From an uncultured Holophaga sp. (GTDB lineage Bacteria; Acidobacteriota; Holophagae; Holophagales; Holophagaceae), in assembly GCA_963664825.1 (NCBI GenBank), contig OY761614.1:2624001-2688000 (forward strand): a DNA stretch of 64,000 nt, given 5' to 3'. Under the pieces are notes generated by a model. That model was not told the DNA's origin and did not search any database. It saw only the letters and a program-made list of their open reading frames with translations. Made by a program: the position numbers and the translations under genes. Shown here piece after piece: positions 16,120 to 39,053 of this stretch (position 1 is the stretch's first letter; each line of letters begins with the position of its first letter).

Positions 16120-16148
16120 AAAAGTTAGGGTTTCACTGCGGGGCTCCT

Positions 16149-18309: not shown

Positions 18310-18438
18310 TTGGGGTTATCCCCTGATCGAGGATTCCGACCAGATCGCCACCCAGCGCGAGAGTTCGGAAAAACGCCTGGAGAAGACCGGGGCGAACCTG
18401 AAGCCGGAACCGAAGGCGGTCTCGTCGATAAAAGGACC

Positions 18439-21159: not shown

Positions 21160-21162
21160 CGT

Positions 21163-21588
21163 TCACTCCGCACTGGGGGCAACGGGTTCGTTGATGATGG
21201 CCCAGTAGAATCCAACCCTTGCAACGGTGTCGGCGAATTCGGAAAAATCCACGGGTTTTCGCACAAAACTATTGGCTCCATGTTTGTAGCTATTTATACG
21301 GTCCTGTTCCTCGTCCGAGGACGTCAAAATCGCCACCGGCAGCAATTTGGTCCTGGGCTCTTCTCGCAGGCGTGCGAGGACTTCCAACCCTCCGATCCGA
21401 GGCAGGCCGAGGTCGAGCATGACAACCACCGGCAGCTCCTGCTTGGGATCAAGCAGGAGATCCAGGGCCTGCTGACCATCCCGGACCACGAGAATGGGAT
21501 TGGCAATATTCGCCTTCCGGAGGGCTCGGAGCGTAAGCATTTCATCCTGGATATTGTCCTCCACCAGGAGGATGGACTTGAGGGTCAT
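21163..21588 (-). CDS. Single-domain response regulator (Rcp1-like)
   Basis: LLVEDN, LDLGLP, LTSSDEEQD, GANSFVRKP. Confidence 0.93.
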   Translation of the reverse strand: MTLKSILLVEDNIQDEMLTLRALRKANIANPILVVRDGQQALDLLLDPKQELPVVVMLDLGLPRIGGLEVLARLREEPRTKLLPVAILTSSDEEQDRINSYKHGANSFVRKPVDFSEFADTVARVGFYWAIINEPVAPSAE

Positions 21589-24548
21589 GGCTGGGACTCC
21601 GCGGGGCTGGGAAGGGTGAATTCGAAACGGGCGCCTTGATTGGGATGAGCCTCGGCCTGGATGCTTCCACCATGCCTGTGGATGATGCGCTGGACCGTCG
21701 CTAAACCAATGCCAATCCCGGGGAACTCATCCTGGCGGTGAAGGCGCTGAAAGGGTTGGAAGAGCTTGGTGGCGTGAGCCATATCGAACCCTGCGCCATT
21801 GTCCTCAACGACAAACCTTGCCTCTCCCCTCCGGAACCCGATGATGGCGGGATGACGGCCCTCGGTGTATTTCCAGGCGTTCCCGATCAGATTGCGCATC
21901 ATGGCTTCGATCAGCCGCGGATCGCCCCAGGCCTGCAAGTTGGATGCGATTTTCCAGACCACCTCGCGCCTGGGCTCCGAGGCCTCCAGATCCGTCCGAA
22001 TCCGCTCGACGAGGTCTGAAAGGTCCACCCAGCCTCGGTGCAGCTCGCCCCGGGTCACGCGACTCAATTGGAGGATGCCATCGATCAGGTCGGACATGCG
22101 ATTGCTGGCCAGCACGATCTGGTTGAGAAAGTTCTTTTCCGTGTTCTCAAGCTTGGGACTCAGATCCTCCATCAAGGCGAGGCTGAATCCGTTCATCGCG
22201 CGCAGGGGAGCCCTAAGGTCATGGGACACCGCATAAGCAAAGCTCTCGAGTTCGGTGTTGGCGGCTTGGAGTTCGGCGGTTCGCTCTTGAATGCGTTGCT
22301 CGAGGTGGGTGTTCAACTGCTGAATTTCATCTTCCATTCGTTTGGCTTCGGTGATATCTCGTCCCACGACAACAGCTCCCATAATCTCGCCGGAATCGTC
22401 CCGAATGGGCGCAAAGCTGTAACTTGCGACCCAAGACTCGCCGGTATCGCGTCTTCGAAGTTCATATACGGCATTGGAGGCCTTTTCGCCACGCAAGGCC
22501 CGCGGTACGGCCCATTGGGAAATGGGTGTGACTTGACCATCGGGGTAAAACATTTCCAGGCATGTTTGGTACCCGTTAAAGTTTTTTGCGCAGTCCTCTT
22601 TGCTCTCAAATTTGTGGAAAGTGGAAAAGGCCTCGTTGAATTCGATGGCGTTACCTTTCATATCTGAAATAAGCACAGCATCTTGCATGTTTTCCAGGGC
22701 TGCTTCGAGTTTTGCCCTGCTATCCCGAATAGCCGCTTCCGCTAAACGACGTTCAGTGATGTCATACACGATGGTGCATAGCAGTACACGGCTTTGCACC
22801 GGGATGGGTCCGCTGAAAACCTCCACATCGCGAATGCTCCCATCGGCTCGTCGGTGTTGGAAGAAGAAGTGTCGTTGACTTCCTCGATCGGAACACTGCA
22901 TGGCTTCATGGATCTTATCCGCTGGGAGCGTATTGATCTGAGCGATGTTCATTCGCCGAAGCTCATCAGCATCCCAGCCATAGAAATTGATGGCAGCTGG
23001 ATTGGCATCGACAATTGAACCCGTATCTTGGTCTATAATTAGTATTACACTGTAATTGTTATAGAAAAGGCTGCGATAGCGTTCCTCACTCTCGCGGAGT
23101 GCTTCTTCAGCCTGGATTCGCTGGGTGATGTCTTCGGAGAAGATGACGATTCCCGCAACTTGGCCGTCGAGGTCATGCCAGGGGCGGACTTCCCAGCGCA
23201 GCCACTGGACGGTGCCATCGAGGCGCTCAAACCGATCTCGCTCCTTCCGGATGACTTCGCCGCGCAGGCCTCGCTGATGGACCTCACGCCAGAAGGCTGG
23301 AATTTCAGGGAAGATCTCGTAGTGTGAATGTGCCAAGATCTCCCGCTCACCCAGGCCGTAGTCCTCGCGCCATTGGCGGCTGGCAGCGAGGTAGCGCACG
23401 TCCGTGTCGAACATCGCCAGCGACATGGGCGCATGCTCGATGAGGAGCCGCATCCTGGATTCGCCATCCCGCAGGGCGAAATCGATCTGCTTGCGGTCTG
23501 TGATGTCCTGCATCATGCCCCGCAGTGCACAGATCTCCCCATTGGCGTCACGCATGGCTTCACCGCGCGCTTCCGCCCAACCCGTGCCTCCATCTGCGCG
23601 AATGACACGGGTCTCCACGGAATAGGGGACTCCATCCTGGAGAGTTTGTTGAACCGCAGCTGAGAGCCGCACCCAACTCTCCGGCATAAAGTACCCTTCA
23701 ACTTCCTGGAAGTTTAAGGGTTTGCCGGACGGATCCAGGCCGAACATGTGAAACATCTCTCGGGACCAGACCGGGATATCTTGTTTGAAATCCCAGGCCC
23801 AACTGCCAATATGCCCCAGCTGCTGAATGTCTTCCAATAATTCGAGACTCTCGCGCAAGGATTGTTCGGTGGCTTTCCTGGCTCGGATATCTTCGGTCAC
23901 CGCGATAAAGAAACTCGGCCTGCCATTGGGTTTGCGCTGAAGGGCTTCGGTGATCTGCACCCAGCAGGCACTTCCGTCCTTGCAAAGGATTCTCTTGTCC
24001 CTTGTGAAGGTCTGGTTTTCCCCACTGCGCAGGCCTGCTTCGGCCAAGAGGTCCTGCTCCACATCTTCGGGGTGCGTGAGCTCCGATGCTTTGCGTCCGA
24101 TCAATTCGTGAGCGGCATATCCGGTGATATCACACAATCGCTGGTTCACCTCTTCCCAGTAGCCATCAGGTGAGACGAGGGCCATGCCAACAGCTGCTTG
24201 ATTAAATGCGGCATGGAACCTGGAATTAGACCCTTCTAAGGCTCGGTGCAATTGTGCATGAGTTCGACTGAACAAGAAGCCCACGAGGATGAAGAGGGCC
24301 AGCGACCAAAGACTGGAGATGCCCTTCTGAGCCCACTGCATACTCGGCGGAATAAAGAAATACCAGACAATCCAGGCGCTCTGGACCGTGCCCAGCAGGC
24401 CTCCCCAAAGGCCCCCCAAGTGGCCGCAAAAAAAGACTGTCGGATAGAACAAAAACCATACATATGGATGAATCCAGGGCCAGAGCTGCCATTGCAAGGC
24501 CAGTGCAAGCCAGGGCAATAATGCGATCAATACGCGGTGTTTTCGCAT
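21585..24548 (-). CDS. Membrane multi-PAS sensor histidine kinase (DUF4118-like N-terminal TM region)
   Basis: N-terminal TMs, multiple PAS/PAC, AVSHDLRAPL, NLIGNAWKY, DNGAG, GIGIGL. Confidence 0.93.
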   Translation of the reverse strand: MRKHRVLIALLPWLALALQWQLWPWIHPYVWFLFYPTVFFCGHLGGLWGGLLGTVQSAWIVWYFFIPPSMQWAQKGISSLWSLALFILVGFLFSRTHAQLHRALEGSNSRFHAAFNQAAVGMALVSPDGYWEEVNQRLCDITGYAAHELIGRKASELTHPEDVEQDLLAEAGLRSGENQTFTRDKRILCKDGSACWVQITEALQRKPNGRPSFFIAVTEDIRARKATEQSLRESLELLEDIQQLGHIGSWAWDFKQDIPVWSREMFHMFGLDPSGKPLNFQEVEGYFMPESWVRLSAAVQQTLQDGVPYSVETRVIRADGGTGWAEARGEAMRDANGEICALRGMMQDITDRKQIDFALRDGESRMRLLIEHAPMSLAMFDTDVRYLAASRQWREDYGLGEREILAHSHYEIFPEIPAFWREVHQRGLRGEVIRKERDRFERLDGTVQWLRWEVRPWHDLDGQVAGIVIFSEDITQRIQAEEALRESEERYRSLFYNNYSVILIIDQDTGSIVDANPAAINFYGWDADELRRMNIAQINTLPADKIHEAMQCSDRGSQRHFFFQHRRADGSIRDVEVFSGPIPVQSRVLLCTIVYDITERRLAEAAIRDSRAKLEAALENMQDAVLISDMKGNAIEFNEAFSTFHKFESKEDCAKNFNGYQTCLEMFYPDGQVTPISQWAVPRALRGEKASNAVYELRRRDTGESWVASYSFAPIRDDSGEIMGAVVVGRDITEAKRMEDEIQQLNTHLEQRIQERTAELQAANTELESFAYAVSHDLRAPLRAMNGFSLALMEDLSPKLENTEKNFLNQIVLASNRMSDLIDGILQLSRVTRGELHRGWVDLSDLVERIRTDLEASEPRREVVWKIASNLQAWGDPRLIEAMMRNLIGNAWKYTEGRHPAIIGFRRGEARFVVEDNGAGFDMAHATKLFQPFQRLHRQDEFPGIGIGLATVQRIIHRHGGSIQAEAHPNQGARFEFTLPSPAESQP

Positions 24549-24661
24549 TTTTTATTTATTAATCCCGGGATTGTATTTATATTAATACTGGTCTTGCTAT
24601 CCGTTTCCTTACGTATCGGACATATTTAGGCCCAGCATGAAAATTCACTCGCGAATCGTCT

Positions 24662-24932
24662 GATAGAGTCCCATCAAGTAGTGTAAGAGCGATGGCCACA
24701 TAGGTTGGCCACCGGGTCCGTAAGGTGAGTTTGCCGCTTACCGAACGGAGGGACCGATGGCCATGGATAGGGTGTCGGGGCTAGAAGCCCTGAGCAAGGT
24801 GTTGGAGGAAGGGAACAGTGATTTCCTGCGGCGGGTGCTGCTGATGGGGCTGCAGGCGGTGATGGAGTCCGACGTGGCCGGGCTTTGCCAATCGGGTCCA
24901 GGCGAGCGGACACCCTCACGGGAAAATCACCG
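24662..24932 (+). pseudogene. IS256-family 5' fragment
   Basis: GATAGAGTCCCATCAAG end and N-terminus similar to 44651-44925. Confidence 0.8.
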
Positions 24933-25236
24933 GGCTTCCAGCCATTCCGCACAGGTGGCCACCATCGCGGCTTCTTCCACCAGACGGTCGGAAACTTGCT
25001 CATCTGTTCCTGGCGTGGGGTGGCCCTAGCCAAAACCTCATCGTAGGGGTGGAGGGCCGCTGCGAAGGCACCGAAGTCCATCGGTCGCGGCCCATCTGAA
25101 GGCCCCGCTCTGAAGGTTTTTGGCTTTCAGGGCGGAGTACCACCTGAGCTTCAACTTCTGAGCATTTTCCGGGCAGGCTCACGCCTGCCCGATCCATGTC
25201 GGGCCAGTAGGACCCTTTACAGATTCAGGCGGCCAT

Positions 25237-25680
25237 TCACCGCTGCACACTGCGCTCCGAAAGGTGAAAACCAAGGCGAAGCAACTCCCCGTGGATTCTC
25301 GGCGCCCCCCAGAGAGGGTTCTCGCGCGCCATGCGGCGAATCAGAACCCGAAGATTCCCGGAGATGGCGGGCCGACCTACCTTGCGTGTCTTCCTGGACT
25401 TCCAGCGCCAGAAGAGACGGAAGCCTGCTCGATGCCAATAGATGACGGTGGCGGGCTTCACCACCATGCAGACCTCCTGCCATCGGGGCCAGATCCGGCT
25501 CAGCATGGCCCAGAACACCCGATCACGGGCTTGGAGGCGGACCTTCCTGGTGCGGCGGAGCAGGACGGCGTTCTGCTGACGAAGGGCCAGATTCTCCTGG
25601 ATCAAGTCCTTGACCCATCCTGTCTCCTTTCCTGGGCAGGGAAGCAGCCATAGCACCATCAATCGAACAAACCATTTCAT
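25237..25680 (-). pseudogene. N-terminal fragment of rve-type transposase
   Basis: ENLALRQQ, VKPATVIYWHR, ENPLWGAPRIHGEL; DNA shared with 44560-44650 and 46109-46289. Confidence 0.8.
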
Positions 25681-25790
25681 GAGGACATCATGTCATGGCT
25701 GGCTGAGTCGACGTTGTGGGCAATACCCCGAGTGGCCTTACCCTAAAATCCTGAACCACCTAAAAAGTTAGGGTTTCACTGCGGGCTCCT

Positions 25791-26048
25791 TCATTCTGGG
25801 ACAGTCAGCCCACCCGCAATAAGCTCTTCCAGGCTCTTTCGCTCAACAAGCAGCCTCCGCCCGCCGTTGGGTCCGGGACGCTGCCAGATGGCCACCCTAG
25901 GCGCCTTGCGATCACAGTAGGCGGCCCGGAAGGAATCCGGTTCCATGCCCATGGCGCGGGCGGCGGCCTTCACGGGGATCCAGTTTCCTTCGGAGATTAG
26001 CTCTAGGAGATTGGCTGAATCACTGGGCAGACAGGGTCCCTGGCTCAC
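25791..26048 (-). CDS. Small HTH (excisionase-like) phage protein, copy B
   Basis: Near-identical to 16149-16406; GTGA overlap with upstream ORF. Confidence 0.6.
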   Translation of the reverse strand: MSQGPCLPSDSANLLELISEGNWIPVKAAARAMGMEPDSFRAAYCDRKAPRVAIWQRPGPNGGRRLLVERKSLEELIAGGLTVPE

Positions 26049-27232
26049 TGTTCGTTCCTGGTGAACGGCTGCCCTAGCGCGTTAGCGACGGCCAGGGCGA
26101 AGGCGGAGTCATTGATGAGGAGGTCGTTAACCCGGCTGACTTCCTCCAGGTCGCGGTCCTCCGGGTTGGCGTACAGGGGATCATCCCAGATGACGAAAAC
26201 GTCCAGCGTGTGGCCATCAATAGACCAGCACTGGTAGGGAAGGCTGGGCTTGCGACGCACATAGGGGCCCTTGTCGGTGAGGGCTTTCCGAGTGCCCATG
26301 CGAAGCCCCATGAGGACGGCGGGATCCAGCTCCTGCAGGCGGCGCCGAACGGTCGCCTCGGAAATGGTGTATCCCTTCTGCTGGAGCACGTCGGCGGCGC
26401 CGATGTAGCTGCCCGTGTGGGCGAAGGCGCCACGGATTTCGTCATCCAGGCCCGGGGTTTGATCCGTGCGTCGGGGGCGGCCACAGGCGGAGTGGTGAGG
26501 CTTGAGGGCGTCGCCCGTGGGGTCCTGGGCATACAGCCCCCACCAGCGGCGCAGCGTGTTATCGCTGGGCGCGGATTTGAGGACCTTGAGGATGGCCTGA
26601 CCTTCGGAGGAGGTCCGCAGCCACTGCTGGGCCTCATCCAGGACATAGGAGGGGACTCCGCCCCGAACGGAGCGGCGTTCCCACGGATTCAGGCTGGCCA
26701 ACCTCGGGCGGACAGCCAGATCCAGGAAGCTCAGCCGCGCCTGCTGGATGGCCTGCGCCCGCTGGAGGGCGTCGGGATTGGCCCGGAGTACTACCTGCTG
26801 AGGATCGCGCTTGATCGGCGCGGGGCGGGTGGCCACGGGGCAGGGCTGGATCGAGGCCTGCTGACGCTCCCAGGCTGCGCGGGCGCCGGGATAGAGCGCG
26901 ATAAGGGCCTCCAGATGGATGGAATATTCAGTTCGCCCTTTGTTGGGGCCACTTTGGGTAATGTGAGGGGCTGCGTGCAGGCGCTCGCTCTGAATCGCCT
27001 TCAGGATGGCTTGCCTGGATTTCCCGGTTAGCTCGGCCGCTTCCGTAATCGTGAGCGCGACAACCTGTTCGGAATCTGTCGTTGTGAGCGCATCGCCCAT
27101 AACGCCATCAGAATCTATACTTTTCGAAGGATTTTGGGTCGCGACAACCGGTTGTCGCGTTGTGGCGGGGAGCGTGACAACCGTGACAACTTTGGGTTGT
27201 CGCGAGGGGATATGTTGAGGTGAGATCTGCAT
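26045..27232 (-). pseudogene. MuA-like DDE transposase, truncated after first catalytic Asp (unit 1)
   Basis: N-terminal HTH (ITEAAELTGKSRQAI), PSDNTLRRW, SEATVRRRL, PYQCWSIDGHTLDV then unrelated tail; follows ner. Confidence 0.8.
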
Positions 27233-27240
27233 AATCGCTT

Positions 27241-27573
27241 CTACGCGATTTCTTTCCGGAGCCGCCCCCAGATGCGGTCAGCTTCGAGCCCTAAGGTTTC
27301 TGCCAGGACGTCTTCCACCACCACGTCACGACAGTCCCGGTTGATAACCTGATGGAAGTAAGGGTCCGTGTACCCGTGCGTCTCGGCTAGCACACGGACA
27401 TTGACACCTTTGAGCTTCAGGAGGGCTCGGACGGCTTCCGGTTTCAGGCTGCCATCCAGATTGATGCCATTCGACATGAGATGTTGAACATCCGAAGCCG
27501 TGGCTAGGATGGCTTGGGTGCTTGGAGGCAGGCCATAGGCCGCCCTCTTGCGCGGGGCTTTTTCGGGTAGCAT
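27241..27573 (-). CDS. ner: Ner/Nlp-like transcriptional regulator (unit 1)
   Basis: PEAVRALLKLKGVNVRVLA...VEDVLAETLGLEADRIW; divergent from repressor as in Mu c/ner. Confidence 0.75.
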   Translation of the reverse strand: MLPEKAPRKRAAYGLPPSTQAILATASDVQHLMSNGINLDGSLKPEAVRALLKLKGVNVRVLAETHGYTDPYFHQVINRDCRDVVVEDVLAETLGLEADRIWGRLRKEIA

Positions 27574-27660
27574 TCAAGTCTCCGATTACTTAGTTCACGA
27601 AGTGTGAACAGGAGAACAGTAAGTCTCGATAGGAAACACGTCAAGAGGTTGTTGCGCATC

Positions 27661-28398
27661 GTGAGCAAAGCTGAAATTCAGACTCCAGGCAAAAGGGTTA
27701 GACGCGCAAGGACCGCGCTGGGTAAAACTCTGGAATCTTTTGGCGCGCCAATGGAACGTTCACGTGCTGCGATTTCACGATGGGAGACGGACCAGATAAG
27801 CCTCACTGCTCTCGAAGCGGGAGCCATGGAGCACTTCCACGGCATCTCGGCCGCTTGGATCCTGAGGGGTGAAGAACCGATATGGGTTCCAGCAACCCTA
27901 GCTCCGCTAGATGATGCCGAGACCGAATATCGCCCAGTAATCCCTGGAGCCGCCTCTTGTGGGCCTGGTGGCGAAATTGCAGATCCAGGACCTTCGGCTT
28001 ACCGCCTTCCCTTCCGCAAAGACTTCCTCCAGGAGCTACTCCGCGAATGTGGAGGGGGCACCGCAGCGGATTGCTACGTTGTGGAATGCACAGGTGAGTC
28101 CATGCGTCCAACGCTCCACCCAGGAGACTTGGTGCTGATAAACACCGCGTTGGAACTGCGCGTGGAACCAGAACGGGACGCGCTCTATCTGGTACGCACA
28201 GACCCGACCAGCGTAGATGCCCGAATTAAGCGTGTCCACGTTAAGGATGATCGAATTTGTTTCGCCTCAGACGCCTCTGGATTCAAGACAATCGCGATCA
28301 ATGTGGATGGTATCCCGATCCAGCGCCTCATCCTCGGCCGCGTCTGTTGGATCGCCCGCAGTGTGGTGAAGGACGAGCGCCCAGAGCGGAACTGGTAG
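27661..28398 (+). CDS. Phage repressor, XRE HTH plus S24 peptidase (unit 1)
   Basis: SRAAISRWE HTH, WILRGE, GESMRPT Ser and IKRV Lys catalytic motifs; start uncertain. Confidence 0.9.
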   Translation: MSKAEIQTPGKRVRRARTALGKTLESFGAPMERSRAAISRWETDQISLTALEAGAMEHFHGISAAWILRGEEPIWVPATLAPLDDAETEYRPVIPGAASCGPGGEIADPGPSAYRLPFRKDFLQELLRECGGGTAADCYVVECTGESMRPTLHPGDLVLINTALELRVEPERDALYLVRTDPTSVDARIKRVHVKDDRICFASDASGFKTIAINVDGIPIQRLILGRVCWIARSVVKDERPERNW

Positions 28399-28417
28399 GC
28401 GACTCGTTCCAACCATA

Positions 28418-28629
28418 TTGACGGATTTAGAAGCCTCGCGCAGGATCCGAAGCTTACCCGCAGGATTCGTGCACCCTTTTTGACGGATTTCCGCTTCGTT
28501 ACGCGTCATCCGTCCCAAACTTATTGACGGATTTTCAGGTCTCTAGATCACCCACAAAGCCCCGCCCTTGTTGGCTTTTAGGCCATGTGCCCGAATCGGT
28601 CGTCATGCGAATTATTTCGACGGATCACA
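28418..28629. repeat. Repeated TTGACGGATTT end motifs (unit 1 repressor-side end)
   Basis: Copies at 28418, 28480, 28524 and terminal TCGACGGATCACA 28617-28629; same array at ~53747-53958. Confidence 0.75.
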
Positions 28630-28859
28630 GCGGGATTCCCCGGTGGGCCGCACGACTGGCTGCGCCCGTGTAGCGCGGCAAAATGAATCATCGGGAATCC
28701 GTCAGAATGATTGGTAGCTTTCAATCATTCTGACGGGTTTGGCCTATCGGTCTCAGCTCTCGCGACGGAAGCGGAGTCTATTGTTGAAAAGCCTCTGAAG
28801 GGCTGAACCCTGAAGGCCTCGCTGAGTGCAACATTCTTGGGGCATCCACGGGCGATCAT

Positions 28860-29482: not shown

Positions 29483-29689
29483 TCAAATACAGGCACTATT
29501 TACTGCAATGCTGATACAAACTTGGTGGATTGAATCACAATTAAAGACTGTGTCATTGCAGTACCATGAATTACGATGCTGCGCTTCACATTTGTCTATG
29601 GGTTTGGTATACACACCACCTGCTACTTCCAGGGTATCTGCAGCGTTCAACTGCTTGAGCGTTTCCTTTGAAAGGGTGAGTTTATTCAC
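29483..29689 (-). CDS. lanA: Lanthipeptide precursor LanA1 (68 aa)
   Basis: GTG start with AGGAG RBS; leader KLTLSKETLKQL...VAGG; core with 5 Cys and 6 Ser/Thr. Confidence 0.85.
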   Translation of the reverse strand: MNKLTLSKETLKQLNAADTLEVAGGVYTKPIDKCEAQHRNSWYCNDTVFNCDSIHQVCISIAVNSACI

Positions 29690-29804
29690 GGGTTCTCCTG
29701 GAAAAAGGAAGGGGATTTGAAAATTTGCATCCAACGGATGCGTTGATTGGGGATTCTTCAGTAATTCTCCGCTCTTGCTGGGTTGCGTCAAGTTATTTTG
29801 CCCT

Positions 29805-31871
29805 CTACCTGACCGGTAGCTCGATCTCTTCCTGCTCCAAAGTCGCCTCCTCGGCCCTAGTTTCCGTTCTCCCCCCCATCATGATTTCCTCGTGGCTAGC
29901 GTAGATAACGGTCCTACCTTGGAAGCGGGGGCACTGGAGGATGCGCCGGCGGCTCAACCCATCCAGATTAGAGAGAGCCTCGTCCAGAAGCAGGAGCTGC
30001 TTGTCCGAGGCCAGGACTGCAGTGATGGCAATGAGCTGGCGCTGGCCGCCGGAGAGATTGCCGCCGCCGCTGGCCACCATGGTCTGGTAGCCCATGGGGA
30101 GGGTCTTCACCCATTCAGCCAGGCCAGTCTCTTTGGCCACCTCAAAGAGATGGGTCTTGGGTCCATCGCCGGAGAAAATTCGGAGGTTTTCCAAGATGGA
30201 GCCACTTGAGAGCTGGGGGAACTGGGGAAGAAAGACCATCAGGTTGTTGGCGGCCGCACTATCCAGGCCTCCCATACTGATGCGCCCGGTGTCGGGTGTA
30301 TAGAGACCCGCCAGGAGCTTCAGGAGCGTGCTCTTGCCGGATCCGGAGGCTCCCTTCACGTGATGGAAGGTGCCGGGTTGCACACGAAGATTGGCACCCT
30401 GGAGGATCCAGGGTGCCTTTTCCTTATAGCGAAACCACACATCCTCGGCCAGCACGGGGCCCGTGAGTTCCGTAGGACCGTTCAAAGGCGTTTGGGTCAG
30501 GCGAACCGTGGCAAAGGCCTCGTGGACCTGCGCGAGTTGAGGCCTCGCCAGTGCGATGGAGAGCACCGTCTGGCTAAGACTGGTGACGGCAGCCACGAAG
30601 GCAGCGCTCAGCTGCGAAAAGGCCAGGAGCTGTCCCAGCGAAAGTTCCCCGCCGAGCACCTTGAAACCACCCCAGATGAGAATGCAGATGCTGCTGCCCT
30701 GGCTGAGGAATTCGCAGATGGCATCAGCCCAGAGTCCGATGCGGTCCTGTCTGAGGCTGTGAGCCAGTTCCACTCCCAGCTTGTCCTTCCATCGCGCCAG
30801 CACCCAGTTCTGGCTGCCTGTCGCCTTGAGCGTGGAGGCACCATTCAGGAGTTCAGCCAGCGCGCTGTGCTCCGCCTGGCTGGCCTTGATCTGGAGGCGG
30901 GTCACGCGCGCCTGCAGGTATCCGATCACGGCAGACGCGAGGCTGAGCAGTAATGCCCCCAGAATCACGACGCCCGCTACGGTCGGCATGAGCATCAGCA
31001 TGTAAACCAAATAGGCCACCGCCGTGCAGGCATCGAAGACCGCCGCCAATCCTCGGTTGAGCACCAAGGCACGGGCCCGCTTGATTCCGCTGAAGGCCTG
31101 AAGCAGTTCGCCCAGGGTCTTGCCCTGAAGGTGCTTGAAGGGCAAGTGCAACAGGTGGTCGAAGAGACCCTTTTCCATCGCCACATCAATGCGCGCGGAA
31201 AAGGCATTCAGGGTGATATCTCGCAGCCAGCCCACCCAGGCCCTGAAGAGCGCCGTGAGAATCATCCCGATGCAGAGGATCTGGAGCAGGCTGCCTGAAC
31301 CCTTGGCCAGGGCGCCGTCCATCATCCAGGCCGTGAGCCACGGGGAAATGAGCGCGAGCCCCTGGACCATGGCGGAAGCCCCCAGGGACACCAGCAGGAA
31401 TTGCCGATGCCCCGGGATCAGCTTCAGGAGGCGCATCCAGAGCCCACCCTTTTCGGGGAAGGCTTCACTGATTTCCAGAGCTGTGCCAGAGAAGACTTCG
31501 GCTAGAGCCCTTTCGGGCACAAGGCTCGCGCCGCCTCCGTGTTCCACCAGCCACCCCTTGGCGCTTCGCTTCCGCAGGAGGATCCATTCGCCCGTGTGGG
31601 TCAGCATGAGTGTGGGCAGCTGCAGATGCGCAAGATCGCTGACTTGAGCCTGAACGCACCGGGCTTCGAAGCCGCTGACGCGGAGTTTCCGGAGCAGACC
31701 ATTAACACCTGGGGCGACATTCACGTCACCTTCGTCCTCCTCGTCCAAGGTTTGCAGGGTGGTCTTGATGCCCCGATGCACTAGGAGGCGCCAAAGGGCG
31801 ATGCGGGTGGGGAGGCCTTCCAGAACATTGCCTTCCGAACGGCTCGGCTCCAGGCTTGGTTGCTCCTTCAT
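29805..31871 (-). CDS. Bacteriocin-type ABC exporter with degenerate C39-like domain
   Basis: TMD, GASGSGKS, LSGGQRQ, LLLLDEA; N-terminal domain lacks the QxxxxECG Cys. Confidence 0.85.
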   Translation of the reverse strand: MKEQPSLEPSRSEGNVLEGLPTRIALWRLLVHRGIKTTLQTLDEEDEGDVNVAPGVNGLLRKLRVSGFEARCVQAQVSDLAHLQLPTLMLTHTGEWILLRKRSAKGWLVEHGGGASLVPERALAEVFSGTALEISEAFPEKGGLWMRLLKLIPGHRQFLLVSLGASAMVQGLALISPWLTAWMMDGALAKGSGSLLQILCIGMILTALFRAWVGWLRDITLNAFSARIDVAMEKGLFDHLLHLPFKHLQGKTLGELLQAFSGIKRARALVLNRGLAAVFDACTAVAYLVYMLMLMPTVAGVVILGALLLSLASAVIGYLQARVTRLQIKASQAEHSALAELLNGASTLKATGSQNWVLARWKDKLGVELAHSLRQDRIGLWADAICEFLSQGSSICILIWGGFKVLGGELSLGQLLAFSQLSAAFVAAVTSLSQTVLSIALARPQLAQVHEAFATVRLTQTPLNGPTELTGPVLAEDVWFRYKEKAPWILQGANLRVQPGTFHHVKGASGSGKSTLLKLLAGLYTPDTGRISMGGLDSAAANNLMVFLPQFPQLSSGSILENLRIFSGDGPKTHLFEVAKETGLAEWVKTLPMGYQTMVASGGGNLSGGQRQLIAITAVLASDKQLLLLDEALSNLDGLSRRRILQCPRFQGRTVIYASHEEIMMGGRTETRAEEATLEQEEIELPVR

Positions 31872-31872
31872 A

Positions 31873-34008
31873 TCACCCACGGCCCGCCTCCATGGCCATA
31901 ACGATCTCTCGGAAGGCGCCTGCCTGTTTGGAGAGTGCAGCATAGGTCCCCTGCTGGGCGATGCGCCCATCCTCCAGCACCAGGATTCGATCCGCGTCCT
32001 TCACGGTTTCCAGGCGATGGGCGATGACAATACGCGTGCAGCCCAACCTTGCGAGATTGGCGTGAACTCTCGCTTCTGTCTCCAGATCCAGGGAACTGGT
32101 GGCCTCATCCAGCAGCAGGATGGAAGGCTCCAGCGCCACGGCACGAGCCAGGCAGAGGCGCTGTCGCTCACCCCCACTGAGGGTCTTGGCGTTTTCCCCC
32201 AGACGGCTCTTGTAACCCTGGGGTAGCTTGGAGATCACCTCGTGGATATGGGCGACTTTGGCGGCCCACTGCACCCGCTCCATGGGCAGCTTGGGATCGC
32301 GCAGCGCCACATTGGCGCGCACCGTGTCATCCAGCAGAAAGCTGTCCTGCATCACCACGCCCATCTGGCCCCGCAGTTTCTCGAGATCCAGAGTCCTGAG
32401 GTCCTGGCGATCAAAGCGGATGGTTCCTTCCGTGGGTAGATGCATACCCATAAGCAGACGCGCCAGGGTGCTCTTGCCCGCTCCAGTGCGACCCACAAGG
32501 GCAACCTTTTCTCCGGGTCCCAGAGAGAGAGAGATGTCCTGCAGAATCCATGGGGAGCCTTCCGCATAGCGAAAGCTCACACCCTCCAGATCGATGCGCC
32601 CCATTAAGCGACCGGGATCGACGCTCCCCGAGGCTTCCGGCGCGCTCTCCATCACATCGTCCAAACGCAGCAGGTGGCTGGTGAGAAACTGGAGGTCCGT
32701 AATGGCGCTGAGCATGGATTCCAGAGGGCCCATGTAGAGGCCCTGGAGCGCAAGAAAGGCGGTGAAGACGCCCAGTGTCATGCGCTCACCCAGCACTTCG
32801 CGGCCTCCAACCCAGAAGAGAGCCGCGGTGGCGAGCCCCTGCAGAATGCCCATCAACTGGCTGGAAGTGATGGCCAGCTTTTGGCGTTCCATTGAAACGT
32901 TTGTGCGGCGCACGAGGCGCGGAATCCACCGAGCCAGAACACGGTCTTCCGAAGCGGAAGCCTTGATGGTTTCAAGGCTTCCCAGGGCCTCTGTGAGGAT
33001 GGCACCCTCCTGACCCGAGACGGTGAGTTCCGTGGTCATCAGCTGCTGGTTTTGCTGACGAATGACCAGTAACAACACAACCCTCAAGGTGGAAAGCCCC
33101 ATAACTAAGAGGCCCAACTGCCAATGGTAGGCCAGCATAAGCGAGGAATAGCCAAGGAGCAGAAAGACATCCAGGATGGCGGAGACGCTACGGCTGGAAA
33201 AGAGATCCCGGATCTGGGCATTGCTCTCCAGGCGTTGCATGAGATCACCCGACTGGCGCTGGAGGAAAAAGCTGAGCGGCAGGTTGATGAGATGGGTGGT
33301 GAAGCCCTCCATCAGTTGCTTGTCCATGCGGTTCTGGAGCCCCTGCAGCACATAACTGCGGAGCAACCCCAGCAGGAGCTTGGCTACCAGGGCCAACGTA
33401 AGACCCACTGCAAGTCCCCATAACCAAGGCTGGTAGTGGGGCAAAAGCACCCGGTCCACCAGGACCTGACTGGCCACGGGAAATATCAGACCCACAGCCT
33501 GGAGCATGAGGGAAGCCCCCAGGAGCTGCACGAGACTGGGCCGAACGCTCCGCAGGATTTCCAGGTAGCGGCCCAAGCTTGGGAAGCGCCGCTTACGCTC
33601 GACAAAGTCGTTATCGGGAGCGAACACCAGCGCCACTCCCGTAAATGAAGTTCGAAATTCCGCCCAAGTGACGAAGCGCCTGCCCATCCCAGGATCCACG
33701 ATATGGACGCCCCTGGAGGTGATGCGCTCCAACACCACGAAATGCTTGAACTCCCAGTGGAGAATTGCGGGAAGAGGAAGATCCCGAATGTGCTCCACCT
33801 CCACCTTCACGGCCTCGGCCTCCAGGCCAAAACTCCGCCCAGCTTGAAGGATATTGGCGGCGTTGGCGCCATCCCGAGAGACCTTGCAGGCCTCGCGCAC
33901 CTCTGGAAGGGGCGCATGATGGCCCCAATAGCCCATCACCATAGCCAGCGCGGCGGCGCCGCACTCCACCATTTCCATCTGGGGGACGTAAGGAACGCGG
34001 TGCATCAC
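31873..34008 (-). CDS. lanT: Peptidase-containing ABC transporter (C39 PCAT, LanT-like)
   Basis: PQMEMVECGAAAL, LHWEFKHFVVL, GRTGAGKS, LSGGERQR, LDEATS. Confidence 0.93.
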   Translation of the reverse strand: MMHRVPYVPQMEMVECGAAALAMVMGYWGHHAPLPEVREACKVSRDGANAANILQAGRSFGLEAEAVKVEVEHIRDLPLPAILHWEFKHFVVLERITSRGVHIVDPGMGRRFVTWAEFRTSFTGVALVFAPDNDFVERKRRFPSLGRYLEILRSVRPSLVQLLGASLMLQAVGLIFPVASQVLVDRVLLPHYQPWLWGLAVGLTLALVAKLLLGLLRSYVLQGLQNRMDKQLMEGFTTHLINLPLSFFLQRQSGDLMQRLESNAQIRDLFSSRSVSAILDVFLLLGYSSLMLAYHWQLGLLVMGLSTLRVVLLLVIRQQNQQLMTTELTVSGQEGAILTEALGSLETIKASASEDRVLARWIPRLVRRTNVSMERQKLAITSSQLMGILQGLATAALFWVGGREVLGERMTLGVFTAFLALQGLYMGPLESMLSAITDLQFLTSHLLRLDDVMESAPEASGSVDPGRLMGRIDLEGVSFRYAEGSPWILQDISLSLGPGEKVALVGRTGAGKSTLARLLMGMHLPTEGTIRFDRQDLRTLDLEKLRGQMGVVMQDSFLLDDTVRANVALRDPKLPMERVQWAAKVAHIHEVISKLPQGYKSRLGENAKTLSGGERQRLCLARAVALEPSILLLDEATSSLDLETEARVHANLARLGCTRIVIAHRLETVKDADRILVLEDGRIAQQGTYAALSKQAGAFREIVMAMEAGRG

Positions 34009-34011
34009 GGG

Positions 34012-35283
34012 CTACTCCAGCCAGCGTCGCAGGGGATCCAGCACGATGGTGATGAGGCGCTGCCGCCGCAGGGTAAAGCGAGCCGAAAGTAGCATACCGG
34101 GGCGGATCTTCACACCCGAGAGACGCTTGGAGCGCTCGGGCTGCAGTTCGATCTCCACGCGATAGGCCGGCGTATCCAGCTTGCCTGTTTCTCCAAGGGC
34201 TTCCTGGATTTCATACTGAGAGGCCAGATCAGACCCAATGCGCGTGACGCGGCCTTTCAAGGTGCCAAACTCCGTGAAAAGATAGGCCTCCATTTCCAGC
34301 AATACCTGATCGCCCGACTTAACGAAGGCCCGGTCCTTTTCGGGCAGGAAGGCCACCACCTGCAGCGGCGAGTCCTCAGAGATGATCTTGGCGATGGTCT
34401 GCCCCGGCTGAAGGAGATCCCCAGGACGCGCCACCAAAGCCTCCAAAAAACCCGCTACTGGCGCCAAAACATTCGTCTGGCGCAGCGAGGAATCCAGGGC
34501 ATCCCGCTTCGACTGGGAGCCATTCAGATCCTGGAGCCGTTGCCACTGGTTGCGTTGCCGCTGGCTCTCAAGAGTCGAAAACTCCTGGCGAAGCTGCACC
34601 ATTTGCTGCTTCGCACTATCGAGTGTGCGTAGGGCCGCATTGAGTTGATCCTGAGCCTCGTCTAGATTGATGGGTGCCACCAATTTTTCCACGAGCAGTC
34701 TGCGCGTAGCTTCCACTCTCTTTTCCTGGATTTTCACAGAACTCTCAAAGCTTTTCACTTGCGTGTCCTGATGGACAAGCTTCGTCTGCACAGCTCGAAG
34801 TTGTTCCTGGAGCAACTTGTCTTCTCGCTCGGTGAAGGTTTCCCCCTGGGAGCGCAGGAGCTGCAATTGGCGATCCGTTTCCAGGATGGCGCCCTGCACC
34901 TGGGCCGAATCAATGCGGGCGATGGGCTGGCCTTCCCTCAATGTATCGCCACTGTGAGCATAGGTCTCGGCCAGCACTCCCCCAACCTGAGCCTGGATCA
35001 GGCGCACACCCGCTAAAGGGTGCAGAATCCCCTTGCCCGTATCTTGCACTTCCACTTTGCCGAGGATCGCTGCCAGAAGGGCCACCAGCAAGACGCTTCC
35101 GAGGGCGAAGAAGAGCGACCAGGTCCAGGGAGGCGAGACCCGCAGGGGCTCGCGGATATCCTCATTCTTCATGAGATGTTCGAGAGCTTCCTGACGGAAA
35201 ATGGACGAAGAGGGCTGGGGATCGGATTCCAATGGGGCTCCGGGAGGTATGCGCTTTAAGAAAATAGTCACTGACACAACCAT
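34012..35283 (-). CDS. HlyD-family membrane fusion protein
   Basis: IFRQEAL, single TM, coiled coil, LAPVAG, FGTLKGRV, IRPGM. Confidence 0.9.
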   Translation of the reverse strand: MVVSVTIFLKRIPPGAPLESDPQPSSSIFRQEALEHLMKNEDIREPLRVSPPWTWSLFFALGSVLLVALLAAILGKVEVQDTGKGILHPLAGVRLIQAQVGGVLAETYAHSGDTLREGQPIARIDSAQVQGAILETDRQLQLLRSQGETFTEREDKLLQEQLRAVQTKLVHQDTQVKSFESSVKIQEKRVEATRRLLVEKLVAPINLDEAQDQLNAALRTLDSAKQQMVQLRQEFSTLESQRQRNQWQRLQDLNGSQSKRDALDSSLRQTNVLAPVAGFLEALVARPGDLLQPGQTIAKIISEDSPLQVVAFLPEKDRAFVKSGDQVLLEMEAYLFTEFGTLKGRVTRIGSDLASQYEIQEALGETGKLDTPAYRVEIELQPERSKRLSGVKIRPGMLLSARFTLRRQRLITIVLDPLRRWLE

Positions 35284-35327
35284 CCAGGTTGCAGGGGGTT
35301 CACAATCTGGACGCCTTGATAGCTTGG

Positions 35328-38300
35328 CTATTCTACCTTGGCTAGGGTAGCGTTTTTGGCCTTCTTCCGCTGCCGAGCTAGGCGGGATTCGTAGAGGCGA
35401 TCCAGGAAATCGTAGATGACGAATTCTTGGTTCCGCTGAGCGGAGCGCAGGAGGCGGTTCACGTGCATGTGCGTGAAGCTGGGAGCCAGTTCCGCCCGGG
35501 TGCTCGTCAGGCGGCCTTGCGCTTCCAGATCCCGCAACCGTTCCCAGCAGGATGCCAAAGCCTTGTCCCGCCGATCCAGGATGGCGAGCCCCGGCGCCAG
35601 GACTTCGCTCTGGTTTTCCTCACAAAGAAACGCCTCCAGCTCCTTGCGGAGCTTGCGGAACTTGTCCCCCAATTGCACGTCCAGCCCGCGCTTGCTGCTG
35701 AACTCTCGGCCAAAGCCCTCCCTGGCTTGATGGATCAGGTGGGCCTTGGTCCCGAAATCGAACGCCATGCCATCCAAAAGTCCATCCACGGCCTTGAGAC
35801 CCAAGCGCCAGCGGAGGTCCGCGCCACTATCACCCGGATAGGCCTGCACCAGTCCCAGAATGGCCTGGCTATCCCGCCAGAAAAATTCTTCCGCCAGCTC
35901 GATGCCCGCGGAGCCGCCATAGCGCTCCAGTTCACGCTCGTAGGTGTCAAGTTGCACCTTCCAACAGAGACCTTCGATCATCAGTGGCGCAAACCGTTCG
36001 TAAATTTTGGGCTGAAGCTTTGTGGTGAGTGCGCGGGAATCACCATGGAAGCGAAGGCGCAGATGATGACCCCCCTCGTTGTAGCGGATGAAGAACCAGC
36101 GGTCATAGAGTTCCTGGGTTGCTTCCAGTAGCGGCGCGATGTGGTTGGCCAGTATCTGGTCAGCAGTGCTGGTGCCGGTATAGACCTTGAGATAGAGCCA
36201 TTCCGAGCCCGGTAGGAAGTTGCGCACAGTTTGGGTTTGCGCCGGGTGGGCAGGTTGGGTTTCGGCGAAAATCGACGTTGAACCCTCACTCTTGGCGAGT
36301 GAGGGTGTGAGGGGGGCTTCCCGCAGAAAGGGCACCACCAGTTCGTGGCAGAACCGCCCTTCGGGCCCTGTGGCCAGAAGGCAATCAGGCTCGGGAAAGC
36401 ATTCCTGCAATTCGAAGGCAGGTCGCTTGGCCACAAGTCCCAGGAGGGTTTCCAGCCAGAGGAGGTTTTCCAGGTCCACCAGCAACGTGTTGTCACCGTC
36501 TGCCAGGAGCACCATGCGGGGCAGTTTCCGCTTCTCGCGCCAAGCCTGAAAGAGGGCGAAGAGTTCCGCCCCCTTGGCCTCCTGGATTTCCTTGAGTTCC
36601 TTACTCTCCACGCGCCACTTGGCCTTGCAGAGGATGTGGCGTCCCTTTCGCACTCTGGGCAGGAAGGGCAGACCGTCCAGATTCCCCCAGGTCCAACCGC
36701 TATTGATGGCGTACTGATCCTGCATCCGACAGAGAAAGCGATAGACCCCAAGGCCCCTGGAATAGTTGTGGGCCGTGCTGAGACGGGGCATGATCTCCTT
36801 CTTCAACCGCTCGGAGCGCAACACCACACGATCACCCACCACGGAGACCTGAAGATCCTGGAGGGGAATCTGAAACCCATCCTCGGCACCACTCACGCCC
36901 AGGAAAGGGATCTCGTAGCCGCGGAGCAGGGGGCGACACAGAATATTGCCCATGCGTCCCTCGGGCAAATGGACGATTTCCGCGAAAATAGCATCCGGTG
37001 CCAGGGCCTCTTCGGCCGCAAGATGGGCCTTCACGGCCTTCTCCAACCGCAGATCTCCGTGGCAGAAACGCCCCAGGAGCCTCGCGCCGGAGGGCCCCGA
37101 AAAGTGCTCGAGCAGCATCTCGAATTCTCCTGCATCGAGGGCATCATGCGAACGAGCCGCCAGCACGGGCAAGGCGGCGAAGGCGTCCGGATAGTTCGGC
37201 GTATCGGCATTTTTCAAGGTCTTCAGATCATCGGAAGCCAGATCCCATTCTTCTTCCCCAGGTTTGGCCATGAGGTGCTTTAAGAGATAGAGCTCCCGAA
37301 CCGTGAAGGGAGCCCCCCCCTGTTCCTCACGCCCCGGAAAGGCCAGGCCTTCCAACAGCGGTGCCCCTTCGGCGCCAGGAGCATTCCCGCTCTCGAACCC
37401 GATGCCGCTTTCGTCGTCCAATACTTCCAGGAGGGAAATCCAGCGGGATTCGTAACGTTCCCTGAAGGAGTCGATGAATCGCTTCATGGAGTTGCCGCCC
37501 CTGGGAGGTGCCAGACAACGCAGCAGCTCGATGCCCTCCTCGATCTCCCGGCGAACCTTGACGCTGAGCCGCGCATCAGGCGCTGGCTTCACCAGATCCA
37601 CCTGGAAGAGATGCTTGAGCTTGATCTTCGCCGGCAGGGCCTCCAGATCCTTGGCCAACTGCCGGTAGGTTTCGGGAATGCGTGCACATGTATTTGCATC
37701 CAGAGCCTCGATGCGCTCCAAGGCCGAACCCAGTTGTTCCCCCAGTTCCTGGGTATCGGAATGCCCCTTCAGCCGTGCCACCACCCCATGGATCGGCTCC
37801 TCTCCTGTCACCGCCGGATAGAGATTCGACACCAGCACCTGGTTATCGATCAGCTCGTGGATGTAGCTGCTGGCATCCTCGTAGCTGACTTCCTCTTCCA
37901 TCAAGGGACGGGCCAGCTCCTCGATGGAAACCCCCACCTTGGCGCGCTCCAGGGTGGCTTCCAGGTAGGGTGTGGGCTCCAGGGCCACCAGGTGATAATC
38001 TCGGCCCCGCTCGGCGCTGAAGCGCACTTCCGCATACCGAAGCCGTCCCGCGGCGGTGTATAGGCTTGTGTTGGGCCGGTATCGCAGGGTGCCCCGCACC
38101 ACAGGATCTTTTTCCAGCGCTTCGACCAGGGAGCAGAGATAGTCCATATCCAGGCGCGTATGACGAAGACCGGTCTCCATTCCTTCTACTTTCAGCAGGC
38201 TATCCTCGCCCCAGACCCCCGTAGAACAGCCCGAGAAGAGTCCAAAGGGCGTAGAACGCGAGGCCATGCGGGACAAATACCGCACCAGGCTCCGCTCCAC

Positions 38301-38582
38301 GCGATCCTGCTTCTCTCCCGTCAACTTGCCCTGAAGCCAGGGATCCAACATCTCCTCCATATCCGGGGAAGCCACGAAAATGGCCTCCCGAATTTCGGAG
38401 CGCTGAAGGGCGGCGCGCAATTTGCTCCGCATTGCATCGCGATCCGCTTCCAGCGCAAAGGCCAGATCATCGACCCCTGCATGAGGGCCGTGCAAATCCA
38501 AGGACCAATCCGTCAGGAAATCATAGGGAAGGGCTGGGGTGCGAAAGGCAAAGAAGGGTTCTGTCTTGAACGTATGGGTCAC
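35328..38582 (-). CDS. lanB: Class I lanthipeptide dehydratase LanB (glutamylation plus elimination domains)
   Basis: RTPALP, YLSRMASRSTPFGLF, LLGRF, LPRVR, EWLYLKVY, WFFIRY, HLRLR, YERELERYGG, HMHVNR. Confidence 0.95.
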   Translation of the reverse strand: MTHTFKTEPFFAFRTPALPYDFLTDWSLDLHGPHAGVDDLAFALEADRDAMRSKLRAALQRSEIREAIFVASPDMEEMLDPWLQGKLTGEKQDRVERSLVRYLSRMASRSTPFGLFSGCSTGVWGEDSLLKVEGMETGLRHTRLDMDYLCSLVEALEKDPVVRGTLRYRPNTSLYTAAGRLRYAEVRFSAERGRDYHLVALEPTPYLEATLERAKVGVSIEELARPLMEEEVSYEDASSYIHELIDNQVLVSNLYPAVTGEEPIHGVVARLKGHSDTQELGEQLGSALERIEALDANTCARIPETYRQLAKDLEALPAKIKLKHLFQVDLVKPAPDARLSVKVRREIEEGIELLRCLAPPRGGNSMKRFIDSFRERYESRWISLLEVLDDESGIGFESGNAPGAEGAPLLEGLAFPGREEQGGAPFTVRELYLLKHLMAKPGEEEWDLASDDLKTLKNADTPNYPDAFAALPVLAARSHDALDAGEFEMLLEHFSGPSGARLLGRFCHGDLRLEKAVKAHLAAEEALAPDAIFAEIVHLPEGRMGNILCRPLLRGYEIPFLGVSGAEDGFQIPLQDLQVSVVGDRVVLRSERLKKEIMPRLSTAHNYSRGLGVYRFLCRMQDQYAINSGWTWGNLDGLPFLPRVRKGRHILCKAKWRVESKELKEIQEAKGAELFALFQAWREKRKLPRMVLLADGDNTLLVDLENLLWLETLLGLVAKRPAFELQECFPEPDCLLATGPEGRFCHELVVPFLREAPLTPSLAKSEGSTSIFAETQPAHPAQTQTVRNFLPGSEWLYLKVYTGTSTADQILANHIAPLLEATQELYDRWFFIRYNEGGHHLRLRFHGDSRALTTKLQPKIYERFAPLMIEGLCWKVQLDTYERELERYGGSAGIELAEEFFWRDSQAILGLVQAYPGDSGADLRWRLGLKAVDGLLDGMAFDFGTKAHLIHQAREGFGREFSSKRGLDVQLGDKFRKLRKELEAFLCEENQSEVLAPGLAILDRRDKALASCWERLRDLEAQGRLTSTRAELAPSFTHMHVNRLLRSAQRNQEFVIYDFLDRLYESRLARQRKKAKNATLAKVE

Positions 38583-38803
38583 AGGTTATTCCGTAAAATA
38601 ATCATTTAGTAGGCTTAATATCATGGCGCAATCCCATTATTATGGGGACCAAGTCCAAGACGCATTTCGAGTTGATGGTCGAAGTGGTCGCGTAGAGCTG
38701 CGCTGTCGGAGTTTGGCCAGTATCACAATACTAAACCGAGCCGGGGAGGGCGGGCGCCCCTCCAAACACAGCGCTTCATTCAACATCCATTAATCATGTA
38801 TAT

Positions 38804-38837
38804 AACAAAGTGCCGCCCAGTGTTAACTGGGCGACAC
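38804..38837 (-). terminator. Stem-loop/terminator between lanA2 and lanB
   Basis: Minus strand GTGTCGCCCAGT-taac-ACTGGGCGGCAC then TTTGTT. Confidence 0.7.
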
Positions 38838-38882
38838 CCCCCCCGGTAGGGGACCAAATGTCATGCCACTCCTACGCGACTA

Positions 38883-39053
38883 TTAGCAAAAATTATCCGT
38901 ATGCACACAGGTGTAGGCGGCATCGTAGGTTGGCCCCATATTCTTCTGGCAGGTGCAAATTGTATCGGGACCTTTCTTGCTTCCTCCAAACACCAGAGTT
39001 GCCTCATTCGAGGATAGGTGAGCCAGAGTCTCTTTATTAAGTTTAAGCGTCAT
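38883..39053 (-). CDS. lanA: Lanthipeptide precursor LanA2 (56 aa, not in ORF track)
   Basis: Hand translation MTLKLNKETLAHLSSNEATLVFGG-SKKGPDTICTCQKNMGPTYDAAYTCVHTDNFC; AAGGAG RBS. Confidence 0.88.
   Translation of the reverse strand: MTLKLNKETLAHLSSNEATLVFGGSKKGPDTICTCQKNMGPTYDAAYTCVHTDNFC

Follow-up and report, generated by a model that had tools for sequence, protein, structure and literature searches.

The window, by which we mean the whole 64,000-nucleotide stretch of the uncultured Holophaga sp. chromosome analysed here, carries two defective Mu-like elements arranged in tandem beside a pair of tRNA-Ser genes. Unit 1 (13009–28629; 15,621 bp, TGT...ACA) and unit 2 (28669–53958; 25,290 bp) are separated by a 39-bp spacer (28630–28668), which lies between the final ACA of unit 1 and the initial TGT of unit 2. 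The pair, 40,950 bp in all, is enclosed by a 5-bp target duplication, GCCGC, at 13004–13008 and 53959–53963. The last ACA lies 117 bp from tRNA-Ser(tga) (54076–54165, minus strand; called by ARAGORN and Rfam), the putative targeting landmark, and this interval (53959–54075, minus strand) holds a terminator-like hairpin and the proximal part of a tRNA-linked repeat. The divergent partner, tRNA-Ser(gct) (54250–54342, plus strand; ARAGORN), is the most frequent target in relatives. On the other side of the pair, a 20-bp distal copy of the tRNA-Ser(tga) 3' end (12954–12973, minus strand, identical to 54076–54095) terminates the repeat unit, and the present left flank (12965–13008), the window chromosome's own target allele, is continuous with 53964 onward in the empty allele of a related genome, G007.

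We use c-end for the end on the repressor side of an element (the right end of the preliminary description, and attL in the RcapMu record) and S-end for the far side. The S-end of unit 1 (13009–13080, plus strand) has two inverted GACGGA-type repeats and six further copies in the genome, and the S-end of unit 2 (28669–28740, plus strand) is 97% identical to it. At its tRNA-proximal end, each unit carries genes for a repressor and Ner together with a broken MuA-like gene. In unit 1, these are a truncated transposase (26045–27232, minus strand) consisting of the N-terminal 395 aa and broken at the start of the DDE domain, a Ner-like regulator (27241–27573, minus strand) and a CI-like repressor with HTH and S24 domains (27604–28398, plus strand), followed by a c-end (28400–28629, plus strand) with four direct GACGGA-type repeats and a final ACA. 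The truncated transposase is 60% identical to a full-length relative of 811 aa, which matches the phrog_310 transposase. Unit 2 retains a fragment of the transposase N-terminus (51881–52429, minus strand), a Ner-like regulator (52566–52898, minus strand; 65% identical to that of unit 1) and a CI-like repressor (52873–53727, plus strand; 143 of 244 residues, or 59%, identical to that of unit 1), and its c-end (53730–53958, plus strand), to which the c-end of unit 1 is 95% identical, faces the tRNA 3' end.

The cargo of unit 1 comprises DUF6765 and PAS/histidine-kinase genes and IS remnants, while that of unit 2 includes a lanthipeptide cluster, IS elements and remnants of GemA, P22_AR, Bro-N and DUF3164. 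Given the differences in cargo, repressors and Ner, these are two phages and not one that was duplicated. The class I lanthipeptide cluster (29483–42470, minus strand) encodes LanB, LanC, HlyD and two ABC transporters, one with a C39 peptidase; there are candidate precursors at 38883–39053 and 29483–29791, with an IS66 between lanC and a precursor. Outside the units, a predicted secreted protein at 12118–12834 contains two 306-bp tandem copies and has no Pfam match. Beyond the tRNA pair, a 418-bp stretch (54343–54760) is 96% identical to another part of the genome (G000:C1:754073–754493), and the two copies directly abut the 3' ends of tRNA-Ser(gct) and tRNA-Ser(cga), respectively; it is probably the end of a different integrative element. 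A type I restriction-modification locus comes next in the window.

The elements share with Escherichia phage Mu the TG...CA ends, the 5-bp duplication, the repressor-ner-A-B gene order and GemA, and their ends carry the repeated transposase sites typical of Mu-like phages (saltoviruses). The full set of repressor and ner followed by the DDE transposase A and the AAA+ ATPase B is found in relatives; of these, the window retains the repressor, ner and, in truncated form, A. Intact relatives, such as the 38,476-bp prophage of genome G066 with Portal_Mu, Phage_Mu_F, Gp36 and GemA, likewise have portal and head genes of the Mu type; such virion genes have been lost from the window units. On these sequence features, the elements belong to the Mu-like phages, and the two units are defective prophages that DDE transposition inserted, with duplication of 5 bp. 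In the window genome, B was not found, nor was the gene that follows it, here called H, and both units thus depend on a helper.

The spacer had been described as a diverged copy of the target site, and this is borne out: it is identical to the present left flank (12965–13004) at 36 of 40 positions (BLAST 90%, E 1.8e-8), while the next-best match elsewhere in the 3.47-Mb genome has E 0.059, and its local score over the rest of the window is 31, against at most 20 for 30 shuffles. The empty G007 allele, which is syntenic with the window locus, is closer still, with 37 of 39 positions identical, and at one base at which the window genome differs, the spacer has the base of G007 and four other relatives. 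A junction search of 61 genomes gave six matches, the window genome among them. The spacer thus reads as target DNA from another allele, left between two Mu-like prophage remnants. It starts with GCGGG and stops with GCCCG, which would be the old duplication pentamers; neither has a pairing partner here. Measured on the G007 allele from the tRNA end, the three junctions are at 157, 123 and 119 bp, and the spacer corresponds to the DNA between the sites at 157 and 123 bp behind tRNA-Ser(tga). The unit ends nearest the repeat have the same orientation and a register offset of 4 bp, so that nearly the same position was indeed used twice. The present duplication also lies where it had been placed, at a hairpin centre: in the rejoined site, GCCGC occupies the middle of an 8-bp inverted repeat that is perfect and has a 1-nt loop. 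A mismatch interrupts the hairpin in the spacer allele, where the insertion is 4 bp off the hairpin centre.

A tandem of this kind might also arise from a single insertion, if replicative transposition into the sister chromosome were followed by decay that left the spacer. Local duplication by this route would yield a spacer that starts with the left-flank pentamer, as is seen, but the units should then be identical and the spacer 44 bp long, with its end at the same base, whereas the repressors and Ner proteins are far from identical, the actual end is displaced by 4 bp and the spacer has a base shared by G007 and its four relatives but not by the window genome. We regard this origin as highly improbable.

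Because the window chromosome retains a full target copy of its own and the outer duplication is clean, it is most likely that the two units came in together, as a single piece, from another chromosome. On that donor chromosome, unit 1 would have inserted 157 bp behind tRNA-Ser(tga) and unit 2 later at 123 bp, between the tRNA and unit 1, leaving 34 + 5 = 39 bp between them. The pair would then have moved to the empty site of the window chromosome, 117 bp behind tRNA-Ser(tga), either through its outermost ends, with a helper supplying A and B in trans, or by recombination. A donor chromosome with the tandem pair was looked for and none was found. In the contigs of four public runs, none of the listed pieces spans the spacer with 31 letters on each side, and these contigs gave no new junction and no new empty allele.

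To see where related elements sit, insertions were collected blind to their flanks, through phage genes or end sequences. Among 133 genomes, the transposase search gave 10 and a ner alignment 18, of which seven weak ones, with no B or H match by profile, were dropped before counting. The collection was extended with B and ner searches of genome, metagenome and viral collections, in which the named records were Holophagaceae such as Geothrix plus two Alphaproteobacteria, and with c-end DNA; DNA searches with two c-end types added one element, G093. One of the Geothrix records, L062, is from a cultured strain and has a B gene of this family. Twenty-eight c-ends were located, and 24 could be scored after removal of four (G094, G025, L110 and L115) with a short flank or an unsure end; the c-end of unit 1 itself was left out of the count.

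Of the 24 scorable c-ends, all from the Holophagales lineage, 19 lie 35–226 bp behind a tRNA 3' end and face the tRNA, at a median distance of 116 bp and with 14 of the 19 at 78–125 bp. Fifteen are at whole tRNA genes of nine anticodon types. Those behind Ser genes are at 117 bp (tga; the window genome, G000), 78 bp (gct; G066), 91 bp (tga; G091), 100 bp (gct) and 35/47/70 bp (tga) (both G019), 226 bp (gct; G093), 175 bp (gga; L070) and 93 bp (gct; L076). The others are behind Pro (cgg, 103 bp, G021; ggg, 120 bp, and cgg, 120 bp, both G091), Arg (ccg, 124 bp, G004; tct, 203 bp, L077), Lys (ctt, 189 bp, G019) and Asn (gtt, 104 bp, L068). The remaining four are at partial or tRNA-like ends (G082:C81, 92 bp; G137, 124 bp; L114, 86 bp; L121, 116 bp). 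A stricter motif for the tRNA end misses tRNAs ending in ACCA, and the distances were taken from other mapping. The tRNA-like 3' end in L121 (near 2230–2260), 116 bp before the c-end, is called by neither ARAGORN nor Rfam.

The five exceptions are G082:C83, at 1,107 bp, L072, L073 and two sites of the window genome (759706 and 3459590). In L073 (1–268), the c-end is inside a gene that we take, from a RuvC-like motif seen by eye, to resemble the start of cas9. The copy at G000:C1:3459590–3474696 is 99.9% identical to the repressor end of unit 1, has the duplication GCTAG and is followed by a 2,300-aa ORF; its ends are rearranged, probably through an inversion between IS66 copies. Elsewhere in the window genome, two S-ends with portal and terminase genes (745374 and 748181) have lost their c-ends and lie, in the same orientation, 3' of tRNA-Ser(cga). 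On the 5' side of this tRNA, at 183 bp, there is a 4,941-bp mini-element; two further sites are unrelated.

With a chance of 0.0018 per insertion, 15 hits in 24 give P 7e-36, or about 2e-16 at a 20-fold inflated null, figures that come from surviving lysogens only and from kin that are not independent, though their tRNAs, distances and pentamers mostly differ. If either end were free to face the tRNA, at least 19 of 24 being c-ends would have P about 0.003 (binomial, by hand). The count took in tRNAs on the same strand only, which makes an estimate of 0.5^19 for the orientation bias circular, and it was set aside. Near-random integration, the paradigm of phage Mu, is thus not the pattern here. 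The suggestion that a Mu-like family has a site- and orientation-biased pathway is upheld by the 19 of 24 c-ends, though the distances are loose and other insertions in the window genome are at unrelated sites. Both ends could be identified, with matching 5-bp duplications, for the elements of G066 (38,476 bp), G021 (44,685 bp), G093 and two in G091. The junctions lie outside the tRNA with 5-bp duplications, and integrase-type recombination inside the tRNA 3' end, with a duplicated att core, was not encountered. A third G091 element (G091:C1 3090659) has unmatched pentamers that come from neighbouring positions in a repeat, which is what the collapse of a tandem pair by recombination would leave.

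The same distribution could in principle result from random insertion, with selection retaining prophages in harmless intergenic DNA co-oriented with transcription. The data do all come from surviving lysogens, and the flanks of tRNA genes gather many mobile elements. However, the enrichment holds at the 20-fold inflated null, the orientation bias is left to be accounted for, and fresh Mu-like lysogens with targeted integration are described in the accessible text of PMC12486242. Ends stacked 12 and 23 bp apart also require repeated hits, and selection on random insertions is therefore a very improbable explanation. These stacked ends are in contig G019:C113, which has elements behind both Ser genes and no repeat there: behind its tRNA-Ser(tga) (L036 7461–7520), there are three successive c-ends, two of them stubs of 12 and 23 bp, followed by a full end. 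Such a stack is what insertions leave when each goes into the end of the one before it, and since a resident's own end served as target, target immunity seems to be inactive at that site.

The preliminary description took the palindromic repeat, or the centre of its hairpin, to be the target. The repeat unit, about 150 bp long and located behind tRNA genes, consists of a hairpin, then the tRNA 3' end in inverted form, a structured, GC-rich body and finally the same 3' end in direct orientation. In E. coli, the 178-bp tRNA-linked repeats of tyrT also lie behind a tRNA gene, and each unit is closed by a copy of that gene's 3' end; unlike these, the Holophagales unit has the inverted copy in addition. 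Members of the family occur in the window (12954–13008 and 53959–54075) and in L002, L004, L005, L006 and L008, and a strict pattern for the start of the repeat is found in 59 of the 133 genomes of the order. When Rfam was run on seven repeat loci, tRNA alone reached the gathering score; on 15 flank regions, it returned one tRNA and one sRNA-Xcc1.

By eye, 11 of the 19 tRNA-adjacent c-ends are in or just behind the repeat or its remains, which would be expected if the repeat were targeted as BIME motifs are for phage Ab30, as would the present duplication being centred in the 8-bp inverted repeat and the position of an Alphaproteobacterial prophage, L201, beside a REP-like hairpin. Against this, eight of the 19 have no repeat, and in both L076 and L077 a tRNA with repeats stands unoccupied next to the repeat-free tRNA behind which the prophage sits. 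Insertions fall at very different points of the repeat, the motif is common, and the repeats behind Leu(taa) and Met(cat) in the window genome are unoccupied. The repeat is thus an improbable target. The landmark is the 3' flank of the tRNA, which is the common factor, and we consider it very probable that tRNA-flank targeting and the spacer's origin from another allele hold together.

The preliminary description also stated that no target-selector gene survives in the window. By Pfam, no TniQ/TnsD or Cas gene was found, and the candidate H is missing from the window genome. It had looked to intact relatives for a TniQ/TnsD-like, Cas or other selector next to A and B. None of the first two, nor TnsE or TnsF, is among the Pfam matches listed for 59 of the 79 ORFs of the intact G066 prophage (most opposite-strand shadow ORFs having been left out) and for six early G019 genes. 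There is, though, a candidate of the other kind. Intact elements have the gene order A, B, H, usually followed by a small HTH/cysteine gene. B is short compared with Mu B (about 250 aa, AAA_22/TniB-like); among solved structures, a target activator B and TnsC are the most closely related to it. H, a protein of about 186 aa (phrog_2030), is modelled as two winged-helix domains with a pLDDT of 90. In comparisons with solved folds, the model matched many single winged-helix domains, the best with Z 10.9 and rmsd 2.4 over 74 aligned positions, covering residues 1–78 only; the listed matches are generic winged-helix proteins, with no TniQ/TnsD entry among them, which does not count against a TniQ-like fold.

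A modelled complex of B and H scored 0.75, against 0.00 for the best of three controls. Of 157 solved pairs, 116 reach the mark applied to this score, as do 2 of 215 mismatched ones; the mark is roughly applicable to the alignments used here. Model runs agree in at least 49% of contacts, with a partner pLDDT of at least 76. Most of the predicted interface is formed by the second domain of H, which no solved sequence relative covers. The model supports binding of H to B.

The class of target follows B and H rather than the transposase. Two G091 prophages, one Pro-type and one Ser-type, are 96% identical in the core of A but 53% in B and 45% in H. In the B and H trees, Pro/Asn-type elements fall in one supported clade (98/100 and 96/97), while the Ser-type rows do not form one supported clade. 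The contrast between clades amounts to about two independent changes. That H acts as the selector is a tentative reading, to which we give slightly less than even odds. It must accommodate the occurrence of H in untargeted elements, and the Pseudomonas phage HW12, which inserts mostly at random yet has an H homolog 98.2% identical to that of Ab30, a phage with strong hotspots. Conversely, the ORF table of vB_CibM-P1, which is listed as phi354 in the Citromicrobium phiA group with its strict targeting, shows no H-sized gene after B. Together, HW12 and vB_CibM-P1 mean that neither the sufficiency of H for targeting nor the need for it is established.

Alternatively, a feature of the host at tRNA loci, such as heavy transcription, a terminator, an R-loop, supercoiling or nucleoid or SMC proteins, might steer the insertions, with H serving as a general cofactor of B. 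The loose distances and the many tRNA species used fit such a model, as do the presence of H in untargeted elements and in HW12 and the window-genome copy 183 bp on the 5' side of tRNA-Ser(cga), and host factors are suggested in PMC5977238 itself, as far as its accessible text goes. On the other hand, the tRNA class tracks the B-H module within a single host genome, none of the 24 ends is at rRNA or other strong transcription units, and the accessible part of PMC7350765 reports that tRNA coding regions are undersampled by Mu in E. coli. We consider steering by the host rather unlikely.

Taken as a whole, the reading that we prefer, a spacer from another allele and oriented tRNA-flank targeting by a Mu-like lineage, with H as its tentative selector, is the best explanation at a probability of roughly 0.75. 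On infection, H would bind the 3' half (T-arm) of tRNA genes and seed a polar filament of B, as TniQ/TnsD seeds TnsC. The B filament would then bring the A transpososome to a loosely defined distance downstream, in a single orientation, and insertion would take place at the filament's end. A phage of a different immunity type that came later would land between the tRNA and the resident, or in the resident's c-end. Replicative transposition would be largely untargeted and give rise to the off-target, scattered copies. DNA binding by H, the polarity of the filament and the split into two pathways are modelled by analogy on Tn7 and on PMC12486242.

Phage Mu is the textbook random inserter, and homing to bacterial tRNA genes by a DDE transposase is associated with Tn7-like elements. 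Tn7 itself inserts in one orientation and builds tandem islands at its site. The present elements resemble it in orientation, with 19 c-ends facing the tRNA, and in accumulation, as seen in the window tandem and the G019:C113 stack. The proposed parallel to the tandem islands of Tn7 at attTn7 thus stands for repeated, same-orientation insertion and tandem building, but fails for the fixed insertion distance of Tn7-like elements, which is here 35–226 bp with a median of 116. CyCAST homes to a position 30–33 nt downstream of the tRNA end via TnsD (PMC10293859, accessible text). Like such tRNA-homing Tn7-like elements, the Holophagales phages combine a DDE transposase with an AAA+ ATPase and insert downstream of a tRNA end; unlike CyCAST, they do so over a wide range of distances, are tailed phages and have no TniQ/TnsD, TnsA or Cas by Pfam. 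They work like tRNA-homing Tn7 elements without belonging to the Tn7 family.

Targeted integration by Mu-like phages as such has already been published (PMC12486242 and PMC5977238). In Citromicrobium, integration of the Mu-like phiA is confined to a 40-bp zone (n = 24) and that of phiB to six hotspots (n = 20), while replicative transposition of both is chromosome-wide, and strain JL2201 has two phiB prophages 136 bp apart (Dataset S1) (PMC12486242). These phages share Mu-type transposition, 5-bp duplications and confined integration with the elements described here, but the phiA zone is inside a protein-coding gene, and the accessible text of the same paper mentions no tRNA target, orientation rule or selector. 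The Pseudomonas D3112-group phages Ab30 and 2P1 have hotspots 55–61 bp from a BIME/REP motif, which show no orientation bias and receive 5% of replicative events, with no selector proposed in the accessible text (PMC5977238). Ab30 likewise has hotspots at a set distance from a DNA landmark and the same A-B-H gene order, and its ORF08 is homologous to H (hhalign 98%, E 1.8e-13). Unlike at the BIME/REP hotspots, in the Holophagales the repeat is absent from eight of 19 sites, the offset is variable and there is one orientation. Escherichia phage Mu differs in its near-random insertion.

A report of tRNA-targeted Mu-like phages was not found in the literature searched, which covered few subscription papers, and the accessible parts of PMC8541194, PMC5488378, PMC9769972, PMC6024312 and PMC8705779 contain nothing on the subject. 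The phiB hotspot sites of Citromicrobium may bear on the novelty of tRNA targeting. An oriented, tRNA-homing Mu-like lineage would mean that the same safe-harbour strategy has been reached by a tailed phage, and such homing would explain the build-up of cargo islands such as the 41-kb one in the window. More broadly, the conserved gene H of D3112-, RcapMu- and Holophagales-type phages could be a dedicated, swappable, B-binding selector, a functional counterpart of TniQ/TnsD, a generalisation that we hold more tentatively still than the role of H as selector here. If it is true, H alleles set the address, tRNA-Ser or tRNA-Pro/Asn here and perhaps BIME motifs in Ab30, and a large share of the supposedly random Mu-like phages have a protein-guided homing pathway for lysogeny. 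H also offers a testable gene for two published and unexplained observations, the Ab30 hotspots and targeted integration in Citromicrobium. As a system of three genes that brings about 40 kb to tRNA flanks, A-B-H could serve as a compact integration tool.

H-bearing elements extend beyond the Holophagales. A phylum-wide alignment search with H matched 24 of 401 genomes, of which only two matched strongly, both already known. In the Alphaproteobacteria, 19 of 401 genomes matched; 20 of 24 new places were fetched and 15 mapped, giving 17 elements together with L066 and L067. Five of these 17 are adjacent to a tRNA, still an enrichment, but a minority. Two of the Alphaproteobacterial prophages, L195 and L197, have a similar flank at their c-ends that is not a tRNA, at different distances. 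Their flank, and the REP-like hairpin beside which L201 lies, are possible other addresses for other H alleles.
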